From Candidatus Obscuribacterales bacterium (GTDB lineage Bacteria; Cyanobacteriota; Vampirovibrionia; Obscuribacterales; Obscuribacteraceae): 30,528 nt of DNA. The notes beneath the pieces are model-generated. The model saw nothing but the letters and a program-made list of their open reading frames with translations. It did not search any database and was not told the DNA's origin. The stretch spans positions 1 to 30,528 of the forward strand of contig JAKFVJ010000361.1 in NCBI GenBank assembly GCA_021732245.1, given 5' to 3'. The position numbers and the translations under genes are program-made. This document shows, in pieces, positions 1,690 through 13,143 of this stretch. Positions within the stretch are counted from its first letter, which is position 1, and each line of letters starts with the position of its first letter.

Positions 1690-1708
1690 TGTAATTGGGG
1701 AAAATACG
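1690..1708 (-). promoter_or_regulatory. Recurring upstream motif CGTATTTTCCCCAATTACA
   Basis: 76 nt upstream of the start at 1619. Shares an exact 13-mer with 4686..4698 and an exact 14-mer with 11584..11597. Confidence 0.55.
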
Positions 1709-1725
1709 GGTGCTATTTGAAAAGC

Positions 1726-1977
1726 CTAGAATATGAATGGAGTTAATCCTAGCGATGCACGATTTCCCCTTTGAACTAGAAGAGTCTCTGAAACCAGTAG
1801 TGAGTGATGAATCTGGAGTGGTTTACTGCCTATATAAATACCGTCTCTGTCGTGTGAACATATACTTACGTTCTGACTGAAGCCTGGCACGTAACTGGTT
1901 TTGTAGTACTCGGTGCGTAAAAGCCAGAAGCTGTTTACGAGAAGCTCCAGTGCGAAAGAACCTATCTCGCCGGGCAA
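1726..1977 (-). pseudogene. Possible frameshifted C-terminal portion of the PDZ protein
   Basis: ORF starts inside a T5 run (1976-1980) at the 3' end of the PDZ gene. It contains TLLVQRG, echoing SILVQRG of the PDZ domain. No obvious RBS. Confidence 0.3.
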
Positions 1978-2501
1978 AAACCATCAATAGGTGTTCTAAA
2001 TAGAACCCGGGTCATAGTAAAAGACTGGCGGGTTGTGCCTCTCTGAACTAAAATGCTGACCTTTGAATCTACTGGTCCGCGTATTAATTTTACGACTCCG
2101 TTAATAGTGGGGTTAGAGCCGATGGATCTACCGTCCACACTTATTATTTCATCGCCCTTCTGAATACCTGCTGCCTCTGCAACTCCACCTGTTATAAATT
2201 GCATTACAACTATCTTCTTGCCTTGTTTTCCCAACGTCATGCCGACACCAGTGAGTGAACCACCGGTAAGGGGATCACTCACTGTTATCCCGGAGGCAGG
2301 TGATGGCTGTCCATTTCCTGATTGCATTTCGCTGGTATCTGACGTAGAAGACGGCTTTGTATGGTCGTTTCTATTTTGAAAATTAGATGTTGTTGAATGA
2401 CTCTGGTCTTCAGTTTCTGCTGCGTATGCTATTAGCAATGACCCTGAGGAGATTGATAGGATAGTTGTCACCACTAACAGAATGTCTATCTTAAATGGCA
2501 C
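1962..2501 (-). CDS. Secreted PDZ-domain protein
   Basis: Signal-peptide-like N-terminus and Ser/Thr-rich linker. PDZ signature LTGVGMTL...VAEAAGIQKGDEIISVDG...LIRGPVDSKVSILVQRG resembles S41 protease-type PDZ. GTG start with AGAAGGA upstream. Confidence 0.8.
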   Translation of the reverse strand: MPFKIDILLVVTTILSISSGSLLIAYAAETEDQSHSTTSNFQNRNDHTKPSSTSDTSEMQSGNGQPSPASGITVSDPLTGGSLTGVGMTLGKQGKKIVVMQFITGGVAEAAGIQKGDEIISVDGRSIGSNPTINGVVKLIRGPVDSKVSILVQRGTTRQSFTMTRVLFRTPIDGFCPAR

Positions 2502-2555
2502 AATTATTCCTTCTGATTCGCATGTTTAAGTATCTCAATGCTGTTGATCGTGATT

Positions 2556-2941
2556 TCATCTATAGGATCGGTCAATATTTTTCTGGACGGAAATATCAGA
2601 AAGTTTCTCTACAGCGGTTTGTTCATTCGCCAATCGTCCGCGAATCATAACGAATAGCGCCTGATCGTTGTGCGAATTAGTGATAAGTGATTTCGCAAGT
2701 TTGTTGCCTGATGTATCAAGTTCGTACAGTTTGCCATTGCTGATTAACGCGAAAACGGCGTCAGAGCGCAATGCATGTTGCCGACTATAGGTGGCTCGTG
2801 TCAGCTTTACGTCGATTTTTTGTTTGTCATTCGCACAGCACCTTTGTCCACAAGATAACCTGTGAAGCTGGATATGGCGTTCTCTGCGCGAGTCGGAATT
2901 ACTATAAACAGCAAGATCAAAAATAACAGCAATGCTCTCAT
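2556..2941 (-). pseudogene. Frameshifted copy of the small secreted protein at 4153..4521
   Basis: ATG at 2941 reads MRALLLFLILLFIVIPTRAENAISSFTGYLVDKGAVRMTNKKST*. One base is missing in the A-run (plus-strand T-run 2816-2821) relative to the intact copy (AAA AAT ATC). The downstream frame gives IDVKLTRATYSRQHALRSDAVFAL..., matching the paralogue. Confidence 0.85.
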
Positions 2942-2998
2942 GGAAACCCCCTCTCATATTATCCGTAATTGTAATCTTTGGGAACACTTGTGACAGCT
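2581..2998 (-). repeat. Direct repeat copy A (promoter + small secreted gene)
   Basis: Aligns base-by-base with 4160..4578 at roughly 80-85% identity by eye. Offset is 1579 at one end and 1580 at the other, consistent with a 1-bp indel. Confidence 0.9.
2968..2996 (-). promoter_or_regulatory. Sigma70-like promoter, copy A (CTGTCA-N17-TACAAT)
   Basis: -35/-10 hexamers with 17-nt spacer, upstream of GAGAGGGGG RBS and ATG 2941. Conserved in the duplicate. Confidence 0.55.
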
Positions 2999-3013
2999 TG
3001 GACAAAGGGTCAT

Positions 3014-11334: not shown

Positions 11335-11399
11335 ATGTATATCTCCGTGGCTCAAATTCATGTAGGTAGCACCATACTATTCGTAATGGCGCTGATCAC

Positions 11400-11434
11400 T
11401 GGGGAAACCACCAAGGTTTACCGTATTTTTCCCA
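11400..11434. promoter_or_regulatory. Inverted pair of TTTCCCC-type motifs (GGGGAAA...CCGTATTTTTCCCA)
   Basis: Minus-strand TTTCCCCA ends 65 nt upstream of ATG 11334. Plus-strand CGTATTTTTCCCA at 11422-11434. Confidence 0.4.
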
Positions 11435-11557
11435 TCACCTATTCATATATGTCCGTTTATGTCCGCTCTTCATCTCCTCGTGCGAATGACTTTGCACATA
11501 CCCTCTCTGCCCTAAGAATGTCTGAAGTCTCTAAATCTTTAAGTCGTATTTGCCGAT

Positions 11558-11597
11558 GGGGGAAATATACGCAGACGTGGGAATTTCCCCAATTACA
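11558..11597. promoter_or_regulatory. Inverted pair of motifs (GGGGGAAATATACG...TTTCCCCAATTACA)
   Basis: Plus-strand TTTCCCCAATTACA (11584-11597) is identical to the site upstream of 1619, and its TTTCCCCA core ends 75 nt upstream of ATG 11667. Confidence 0.5.
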
Positions 11598-11666
11598 TGA
11601 CTAGCAAGCAGCTATAGGATGCTTACAGAAAGCAGTAGCTATGAAATTTTAGTGGGGTGACGACTA

Positions 11667-12983
11667 ATGGCAGATGGTGGTTCTAAGGGCGATATTGGGC
11701 GCCATCAGGAACAAGTAGATAATTCGCGTGAAAGAATGGTTGAGAACTGGCAGAATGATTTCAACGAATTTATTGTTGGCACTATTAACAATCCCATGGG
11801 TCGATTGAGGCAGACAGCACTTGTAGGCGAAGGACTTATTTTTGGTGGAATTACCGACATAGCCAAAGAGTGGAAAGTCGAAACGGCTGAAAAGGCCGGC
11901 GCGTCGCTATTGGTGGGCAGCGTGATTGGCACTATTTTAACCAGCAGAAATTCGAGTCTGAAAACAGCGGTGCAGCTTCTGGGCTCAATTGGTGCTTTAG
12001 CGTACGGTGTTGATGCGTGGAAAAAGTATAGTAAAGATCAAGAATTATCCACAGCACTTGATGCTGTTTATAAAAATAGCGACTTGAATACATTTAGCAA
12101 GCAAATACATACGGCGAATAAGCAGTTAGGAGAAGAAGGTTTCAACCTTGGTCTTGTCGGGCTTACTGGTGGCTTAGGAATGGCCGTAGGACGTGAATAT
12201 GGTTATACAGTGACATCGAAAATTACTCCTGGTTTCACAAAGCGAATATTTGAAAACGTCTTTATGCCGTCTCCTAAGACTTCAGCTAAGTCTGTTGACA
12301 TGGACTTTTATGCCAAGCATAAAGAGTTTCAAGTGCTAAGACACAACAAAAATGCCGATAGGTTCGCAACGCATTGTGAAGAGACATCTGCAGCTGTAAA
12401 CCATGAGCCTTCATGGCAGAAAGCAATTTCTGAAGAGGAATGCGAATTGTTCAATGCATCTCAGATGCGACGATCATTTGAACATGCTCGTGATACCTTC
12501 CTAGACGAATGTGTGAATGGTGAAATATCAGTGATCCGCTCAAGTAAAGGTCCGGCTGGGTATACTTTTGATAAAAGTAATCGTATTGTTGGAATTACCG
12601 TTCCAGAAGGGGCTACTCCGGCTGAAGTTGGTAGGCAACTTCTGGTAGGTTGCAGTTCCGATACGCTTGGTAAGCCGGGTGATGTGTTAATGTACACTGC
12701 TCTAAAAGGCTCTAAGAAATTTGGTTATGATGGTGCTCAACCGGGTGATTTAGCTGTTGCTGCCAAAGAGGGTAAACCTTTTTCGGAATCCAAGATTGGT
12801 GAATTGAGGCGCACCCAGGGGGCGCAACGGTATGTTGTTGAGGGCAGTGAGGCATACTATCGCGGAGAAAACGGCAACGATTATACTGATTGGATGAGAG
12901 GAATACACGGTATCTGGACTTCAGAAAGGCAAGCGGAGGCTGACTGGTTGCTATCCAAGATTGTTCGTGCCCAAAAATGGTAG
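11667..12983 (+). CDS. Hypothetical protein: family-A hydrophobic N-terminal module plus unknown C-terminal domain
   Basis: 438 aa ORF with GGGG RBS-like element and MADG start. N-terminus homologous to 4754..5692. Confidence 0.8.
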   Translation: MADGGSKGDIGRHQEQVDNSRERMVENWQNDFNEFIVGTINNPMGRLRQTALVGEGLIFGGITDIAKEWKVETAEKAGASLLVGSVIGTILTSRNSSLKTAVQLLGSIGALAYGVDAWKKYSKDQELSTALDAVYKNSDLNTFSKQIHTANKQLGEEGFNLGLVGLTGGLGMAVGREYGYTVTSKITPGFTKRIFENVFMPSPKTSAKSVDMDFYAKHKEFQVLRHNKNADRFATHCEETSAAVNHEPSWQKAISEEECELFNASQMRRSFEHARDTFLDECVNGEISVIRSSKGPAGYTFDKSNRIVGITVPEGATPAEVGRQLLVGCSSDTLGKPGDVLMYTALKGSKKFGYDGAQPGDLAVAAKEGKPFSESKIGELRRTQGAQRYVVEGSEAYYRGENGNDYTDWMRGIHGIWTSERQAEADWLLSKIVRAQKW

Positions 12984-13130
12984 TATTTTGGGTGTGCTAT
13001 CAGGCAAAAAACTATGCGCCCCTAATCGTGCGTTTACTGATGATTTGAGCTGTTTCGTAGCGTTAGCATTAATTCGCTTAGTAGTTCAACTTCAATGGCT
13101 TCTATTCCAGTTTAACTCCGTTGATTGCCT

Positions 13131-13143
13131 CGTATTTTTACCA
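13131..13143 (+). promoter_or_regulatory. Variant upstream motif CGTATTTTTACCA
   Basis: 11/13 match to CGTATTTTCCCCA, 61 nt upstream of GTG 13205. Confidence 0.4.

Follow-up and report, generated by a model that had tools for sequence, protein, structure and literature searches.

A short DNA motif that recurs upstream of modular genes in a 30,528-nucleotide (nt) contig of Candidatus Obscuribacterales bacterium (assembly GCA_021732245.1, contig JAKFVJ010000361.1; the whole contig is called the window below) belongs to an imperfect 18-bp inverted repeat, nTTSGK-N6-CCCAnT, of which it forms the conserved promoter-proximal part. The repeat overlaps a −35-like hexamer and is followed at a fixed distance by a −10-like hexamer, and both the element and this layout are conserved across the order Obscuribacterales. 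In the genome of the window the element most likely co-regulates some 55–75 promoters, as judged from its distribution and architecture. The best explanation of the whole, and a probable one, is that a dimeric factor bound at a class II site would recruit RNA polymerase to 55–75 promoters of a type conserved in the order.

The window corresponds to contig C1 of the assembly (G000 below), which comprises 3.77 Mb in 519 contigs with 47% G+C and is 78% complete. The RpoB of this assembly shares 83–86% identity with records named Candidatus Obscuribacterales, Obscuribacteraceae or Melainabacteria, followed by Vampirovibrionales and Gastranaerophilales, which places the source among the non-photosynthetic cyanobacteria of the class Vampirovibrionia. 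A weight matrix with a window of 23 nt was built genome-wide by iteration from the matches to the loose pattern CGTANNNNCCCCA, with a threshold of ≥16 bits; the intergenic share of the genome, 11%, served as the baseline for site bias. The loose pattern itself has 26 matches, 22 of them intergenic, which lie in sense orientation 25–98 nt before a start and are spread over many contigs. The matrix scan yielded 74 matches, 67 of them intergenic, and for 47 of the 74 a gene start in sense orientation is found within 20–130 nt. Among the 3314 called genes that could be scored, 55 have a site of ≥16 bits within 300 nt upstream. The original prediction had proposed a shared regulatory motif that would be enriched and positionally biased genome-wide; the intergenic location, the sense orientation and the fixed register to −35-like and −10-like hexamers bear this out and characterise the motif as a true cis-regulatory element and not a chance occurrence or a repeat.

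Duplication could also multiply a sequence, the copies then being relics of paralogous 5′ regions or of a small mobile repeat with no regulatory meaning. Some of the targets are indeed paralogous, and a few regions align past the motif (contig C343 with C73, and the window site at 1689 with C401). However, when the 203-nt regions around the 74 sites were compared, just 15 of 2701 pairs aligned, mostly through the core alone, through overlapping windows or between paralogues; 34 targets are unrelated singletons; the element is kept before one orthologous gene in nine genera with diverged flanks; and it occurs in every genome of the order that was searched. An origin by duplication alone is therefore hardly credible.

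In the numbering used here, which counts from +0 at the motif start, the repeat spans positions −3 to +14 with the dyad centre at +5.5. This centre follows from 15 overlapping pairs of plus- and minus-strand matches, 13 of which share an offset of exactly 5. The −35-like hexamer, nTGACn, occupies +13 to +18 and is overlapped by the repeat by two bases; after a 17-nt spacer, a TAnnnT −10 hexamer stands at +36. The widened consensus reads cTT-[C/G]G[T/G][A/G]-n-TTT-[C/T]CCCA-nTGAc. In an anchored alignment of 66 sites, information is limited to the motif, to positions +14 to +17 (T, G, A, C) and to positions +36, +37 and +41 (T, A, T). Within the −35-like hexamer, T is conserved in 58/66 sites (88%), G in 41/66 (62%) and A in 51/66 (77%). 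TAnnnT is found at exactly +36 in 33 of 73 sites, and every other offset occurs at most five times.

The two halves of the repeat differ, the promoter-proximal half-site being better conserved than the distal one. On the left, many sites carry GGGR in place of CGTA (CATGGGAATTTCCCCA is one of them), and this symmetric form can be read as TTGGGR-N4-YCCCAA, that is, two inverted hexamers 4 nt apart. Matches to TGGG-N6-CCCA are 47% intergenic versus the 11% baseline, and some symmetric sites fall in the spacer of a divergent gene pair, at promoter distance from either gene (contigs C12, C150, C202 and C121). Start codons follow the end of the 23-nt matrix window at a median of 70 nt, which implies leaders of about 40 nt. 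With transcription predicted to start 6–7 nt after the −10 hexamer, the dyad centre would lie about 42 nt upstream of the start, and a centre near −42 relative to this predicted start corresponds to the position of a class II activator.

Conservation was followed in 61 Obscuribacterales genomes, all at least 90% complete except the window's own at 78%. The pattern SGKRNWWNYCCCANTGA has 19 matches in this genome, with one for the reversed control, and 21 and 23 in two other genomes of the genus (control 0–1). Across all 61 genomes there are 2–30 matches (control 0–4), and the element is present in 61/61; in other orders of the class the count of 0–2 is at the level of the control (0–3). In the sister genome G001, every large contig carries sites, which cluster locally at the region of the window, and the paralogues of families A and B in G001 and G002 are preceded by sites of 17.6–26.8 bits with correct −10 hexamers. 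Matches also stand just before family-B-like open reading frames in the sister family (G019:C58 and G021:C212) and likewise at G005:C540.

A comparison between genera concerns the orthologous gene of an exported protein of about 370 aa (G000:C167:6227-7342), which has no Pfam family. Its promoter is the best conserved of the set, with CGTASTTTTCCCAGTGA found in nine genera; conservation covers only the motif, TGAC and a −10-like hexamer at or next to +36, and the spacers vary. Two tandem sites precede the gene in G000, at 7465 and 7516 on the minus strand, and also in G003. The protein may be a core member of the regulon; a look-up in the ESM Atlas gave no usable match for it.

The original prediction had left the binding factor as either a dedicated transcription factor or an alternative sigma factor. 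The first is the best reading, because the element is conserved across the order; the second is disfavoured by the TAnnnT hexamer and the symmetric subset of sites. A dimeric transcription factor would bind the 18-bp dyad with its proximal half abutting the −35 hexamer, and would then, in the class II manner, recruit RNA polymerase carrying an ordinary sigma factor of the primary type. The genes co-regulated in this way would include those of three modular orphan protein families, together with many others that are uncharacterised.

If an alternative sigma factor read the conserved block directly as an extended −35 element, the fixed orientation and the rigid spacing to the −10 hexamer would be expected. 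The genome does contain 13 matches to the sigma-70 family, including small divergent ones, of which none is obviously specific; some of the small sigma-like genes adjoin SSB genes, joined on C135 by a RadC-like gene (identified from N-terminal sequences), one lies near a family A gene and another just past the window's right end in the sister genome. Nevertheless, the −10 hexamer is the ordinary TAnnnT of a primary-type sigma factor and not an extracytoplasmic function (ECF) or group 3 element, the −35 is TGAC-like with no GGAAC-type −35 or CGT-/GGGTA-type −10, and nothing is conserved 16–17 nt upstream of CGTA in the 66-site alignment. A two-fold symmetric subset can, moreover, face two divergent genes, which a sigma element would not. 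Direct reading by a sigma factor is accordingly improbable, and a dimeric regulator is preferred because the −10 is ordinary and a subset of sites is symmetric.

Two candidates for the dimeric regulator can be named. The favoured one, put forward tentatively from sequence and distribution, is an orphan response regulator of the NarL/LuxR type (G000:C121:1538-2317) with a receiver and a GerE domain. Of 77 genomes of the family, 75 carry it, as against 0 of 171 genomes from nine other families of the class; its sequence identity is 82–92% throughout the two families of the order, about as high as the conservation of RpoB, and does not exceed 40% outside the order. Its helix–turn–helix is invariant, and the protein has a C-terminal coiled coil and an atypical receiver pocket, ICERHEL, with C-E replacing the usual acidic pair before the first helix of the receiver. 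No kinase gene adjoins the regulator gene, and the protein may work without phosphorylation. A site of 11–21 bits occurs within 450 nt upstream of the regulator in 8 of 19 orthologous loci, or 9 with one minus-oriented match. In 4–5 genera, a divergent TPR gene beside the regulator carries the site in its most symmetric form; ATAGAC and TAAGCT are conserved there, and 20 bp closer to the regulator gene the site occurs a second time.

The same architecture could be served instead by the order's single CRP/FNR-family protein (G000:C39:6735-7430), acting from a class II position as NtcA does in photosynthetic cyanobacteria. This protein is single-copy in 60 of the 61 genomes, its matches outside the order are just 22–25% identical, and its recognition helix, GSSRVTVTQ, shows no variation even in orthologues with an overall identity as low as 48%. 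Its nearest solved relatives are CRP/GlxR and NtcA, the helix resembles the RVTVTR of NtcA, and a pseudo-palindrome centred near −42 of the predicted start fits a CRP-type factor. Against it, the motif is unfit for GTA-N8-TAC, its right half reading AnT; the patterns GTA-N8-TAC, TGTGA-N6-TCACA and TTGAT-N4-ATCAA are 10–15% intergenic versus 11% and hence not enriched; no motif was found upstream of the gene in 18 orthologous loci, the best score being 4.2 bits; and a search of G014 (91% complete), a genome that retains the motif, did not find the protein. An identity of the element with an NtcA, CRP or FNR box was consequently rejected, given the AnT right half at that spacing and the classical boxes' lack of intergenic enrichment, as was autoregulation of the CRP-like gene, which has no site upstream. 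With these points set together, the CRP-family protein is distinctly unlikely to be the factor, and the response regulator is favoured over it, a choice that computation cannot decide.

Several observations count against the picture of a response regulator activating these promoters. The copies near the regulator's own gene have no canonical +36 hexamer in its direction, and the regulator is missing from G019, a fairly complete genome that keeps the motif. Both candidates have an order-restricted distribution, and for each there is one motif-bearing genome that lacks it (G019 for the response regulator, G014 for the CRP-family protein); assembly gaps can explain both absences. Since the two distributions match, the phyletic pattern neither chooses between the candidates nor excludes a third factor. 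The distal half-site is mostly CGTA and not the symmetric GGGR, so that most sites are strongly asymmetric. The gene calls were crude and made for this analysis (3652 genes over 89% of the genome), and none of the public RNA runs checked contained the stretch. Finally, the −35-like and −10-like hexamers of the promoters are themselves fairly good, of ordinary quality, and the promoters may be active with no activator bound.

The last point would suit an operator, at which a dimeric repressor covering the first bases of the −35 hexamer silences competent promoters until a signal releases it. The two-base overlap with the −35 hexamer agrees with this arrangement, and the targets have the appearance of accessory proteins that are costly or possibly toxic. 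Operators, however, usually vary in position, and the register to the −10 hexamer is base-exact in 33/73 sites; the proximal half-site, too, is the better conserved, as expected for a factor that touches polymerase. Repression is thus rather unlikely, and from the register and the half-site bias we infer activation from a class II position.

Downstream of the 68 best intergenic sites lie six genes of family A, including those starting at 4754 and 11667, and five of family B. Relatives of gene 93–1619, termed family C, add three targets, which brings the three modular families to 14 genes; smaller groups are a trypsin-like group of three genes and two pairs. The remaining 34 are the unrelated singletons mentioned above. 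A Pfam scan of 40 targets left 29 without a family above the cut-off; the other 11 comprise four trypsin-like peptidases, two TPR proteins, a NERD protein, an ADP-ribosylglycohydrolase, a NUDIX protein, a Na/Ca exchanger and a response regulator. Paralogues of the families that lack a site exist on contigs C142 and C252. The regulon postulated in the original prediction therefore holds in so far as the co-regulated set includes paralogues of both families, here and in other genera, and was drawn too narrowly; the claim that the motif ties specifically two families into one system is not supported as worded, with about 55 genes carrying a site and about 34 of them unrelated singletons.

In all, five trypsin-like peptidase genes carry the site, four of them confirmed by Pfam and one a paralogue recognised by BLAST. 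The site on contig C89 upstream of rpoB was considered as a ribosomal-protein promoter, that is, a general feature; this was rejected, as the gene there encodes a small orphan protein with no Pfam family.

A wider role can be sketched with considerable reserve. It is doubtful, though conceivable, that the response regulator, acting through this site, serves as master switch for a large set of Obscuribacterales proteins, uncharacterised and in part polymorphic, that would drive an antagonistic or host-directed lifestyle and be exported by neither a type IV nor a type VI apparatus. Searches of four genomes of the order turned up no homologue of VirB4 or TssC, and since these are 78–98% complete, the result reads as ‘not found’ and not as ‘absent’.

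Within the window, matches with up to three mismatches number 17, against 7.7 ± 2.7 expected, and one of 100 shuffled sequences reaches 17. The exact copies lie where the original prediction had placed them, CGTATTTTCCCCA at 1696–1708 (minus) and 4686–4698 (plus), and TTTCCCCAATTACA at 1690–1703 (minus) and 11584–11597 (plus); the 14-mer TTTCCCCAATTACA consists of the proximal half-site and the −35-like hexamer ATTACA. The predicted distances of 76, 55, 69, 61 and 65 nt to the starts at 1619, 4754, 11667, 13205 and 11334 are likewise correct. By matrix score, four of the six predicted copies (1696, 4686, 11579 and 11400) are strong and all four keep TAnnnT at +36, and two fail. One of the latter, before the family B gene 13205–16480, is present in degenerate form at 2.4 bits, below the threshold, and keeps TAAAAT at +36; other family B paralogues, unlike this gene, have strong sites. 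The other, a 10/13 variant at 10701–10713 (minus), 21 nt from the start at 10679, scores −3.2 bits, stands too close for the promoter layout and is no site. The absence of the motif before the metal-efflux genes was confirmed, with no upstream match of ≥10 bits.

The modular gene 8979–10679 thus has no site of its own, −3.2 bits being its best upstream score. It lies downstream of the small ‘MADG’ gene 10792–11334 on the same strand and is probably co-transcribed with it from the site at 11400. Two weaker copies missed by the original prediction both fall in the spacer 11362–11666, each back to back with a strong site (Table 1).

Table 1. Sites, putative promoter hexamers and genes in the window, and related loci on other contigs. 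Hexamers were read from the sequence.
Feature	Position	Strand	Remarks
18-bp dyad site, putative promoter of gene 93–1619	1694–1711 (core 1696–1708)	−	Exact 13-mer; 21.6 bits
−35-like hexamer ATTACA	1690–1695	−	Directly after the motif
−10-like hexamer TAAATT	1667–1672	−	At +36
Putative target gene, modular family C	93–1619	−	508 aa; paralogues on contigs C401 and C54 also with site
18-bp dyad site, putative promoter of gene 4754–5692	4683–4700 (core 4686–4698)	+	Exact 13-mer; 23.8 bits
−10-like hexamer TACGCT	4722–4727	+	At +36
Putative target gene, family A	4754–5692	+	312 aa; start 4754 agrees with paralogue on C6
18-bp dyad site, putative promoter of gene 10792–11334	11398–11415 (core 11400–11412)	−	21.5 bits
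−10-like hexamer TATGGT	11371–11376	−	At +36 of the 11400 site
Probable two-gene unit	8979–11334	−	Small ‘MADG’ gene 10792–11334 and modular gene 8979–10679
Weaker extra copy	11422–11434	+	Back to back with the 11400 site; one mismatch; 12.0 bits
Weaker extra copy	11557–11571	−	Back to back with the 11579 site; one extra base; 13.0 bits
18-bp dyad site, putative promoter of gene 11667–12983	11576–11593 (core 11579–11591)	+	Core GGGAATTTCCCCA; 24.7 bits
−35-like hexamer ATTACA	11592–11597	+	
−10-like hexamer TAGGAT	11615–11620	+	
Putative target gene, family A	11667–12983	+	438 aa
Degenerate copy before gene 13205–16480 (family B)	13131–13143	+	2.4 bits
Hexamer TAAAAT of the degenerate copy	13167–13172	+	At +36
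Trypsin-like peptidase locus	G000:C133:1681-3594		
Trypsin-like peptidase locus	G000:C117:9235-9702		
Trypsin-like peptidase locus	G000:C351:3709-4431		
Trypsin-like peptidase locus	G000:C37:990-1613		
Sigma-like/SSB-like locus	G000:C135:3604-6295		With RadC-like gene
Sigma-like/SSB-like locus	G000:C126:1160-2547		
Sigma-like/SSB-like locus	G000:C303:847-2117		
Sigma-like locus in sister genome	G001:C1:507476-507655		About 0.9 kb past the window's right end

Amid the site-bearing genes of the window, gene 7668–8885 encodes a membrane-anchored protein with HTH_37 and TPR regions; it has no site of its own, and its paralogues are found on C321 and C431. Genes 2556–3005 and 4153–4521 share 81% identity over 80 aa, and contig C126 (G000:C126:2-886) repeats a gene of this type together with a PDZ gene (1962–2501 in the window) in the same order; the small cassette has been duplicated locally. 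A divergent, small gene of the sigma-70-like type (region 2 only, 108–179 aa) recurs beside an SSB-like gene, and on C135 a RadC-like gene joins the pair, SSB and RadC being recognised from N-terminal sequences only. One sigma-like copy lies beside a family A gene and one beside a paralogue of the window genes 1962–4521; the set looks like a leading-region module of a mobile element.

The window contig belongs to the Obscuribacterales lineage, because the sister genome (G001, same genus, 97% complete) carries the region at 100% identity within an 840-kb contig. Two separate RpoB matches in the window's assembly (G000:C89:6750-7937 and G000:C93:9642-10643) fit its contamination estimate of 4.75% or a mixed bin; for the window itself, the sister genome provides confirmation. 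The stretch is contained in 20 public DNA runs, which are drinking-water, biofilter and wastewater metagenomes. A search for related loci with the 1091-aa protein found nothing.

A regulator site at a class II position is a well-known kind of system. For this member no earlier description appears to exist, either of the element itself or of its targets and its conservation throughout the lineage, and nothing was found in the literature on transcription signals of Obscuribacterales. Class II promoters of CRP, FNR, NtcA and LuxR/TraR have a dyad centred about 41.5–42.5 nt upstream of the start, a position that the element would share if its predicted start is correct; common to both are a dyad that touches the −35 region and a fixed distance to TAnnnT. 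In the NtcA promoters of cyanobacteria, GTA-N8-TAC is followed after about 22 nt by TAnnnT. The Obscuribacterales element differs from class II promoters in its GGG/CCC-rich half-sites and in keeping a recognisable −35 hexamer, and its start is a predicted one.

Boxes of NarL-family regulators offer a second comparison. The DosR (DevR) box of Mycobacterium tuberculosis is a palindrome of this family with GGG/CCC triplets in each half-site, a feature common to the Obscuribacterales site; it differs in its length of 20 bp, its wider spacing and its dormancy regulon. ComA of Bacillus subtilis, also of the NarL family, binds as a dimer to the inverted repeat TTGCGG-N4-CCGCAA, likewise two inverted hexamers 4 nt apart, upstream of the polymerase site (PMC4797271). 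The symmetric form TTGGGR-N4-YCCCAA differs from it at 1–2 positions per half-site. Unlike the ComA box, the Obscuribacterales site belongs to another lineage and another regulator, abuts and overlaps the −35 hexamer in fixed register and usually has CGTA as its distal half, and its binding is predicted.

As regards the target set, the hrp box read by HrpL and the PmrA sites of Legionella and Coxiella effectors are cases in which one short box marks dozens of unrelated genes, many of unknown function. The Obscuribacterales element likewise marks dozens of unrelated, mostly uncharacterised genes. The effector boxes differ in sequence and factor; here, secretion of the targets is hypothetical, and neither VirB4 nor TssC turned up in the four genomes searched.

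Obscuribacterales have no cultured member, and the element gives a handle on the regulation of their unknown genes. A sequence rule picks out a co-regulated set of about 55–75 genes per genome and so groups unknown proteins by regulation, and the two concrete candidate regulators are open to in vitro work that needs no cultivation. The element also provides a marker promoter for metatranscriptomes of drinking-water biofilms, where these bacteria occur. The modular families of the window would be part of a larger, order-wide programme and not a system of a local island.

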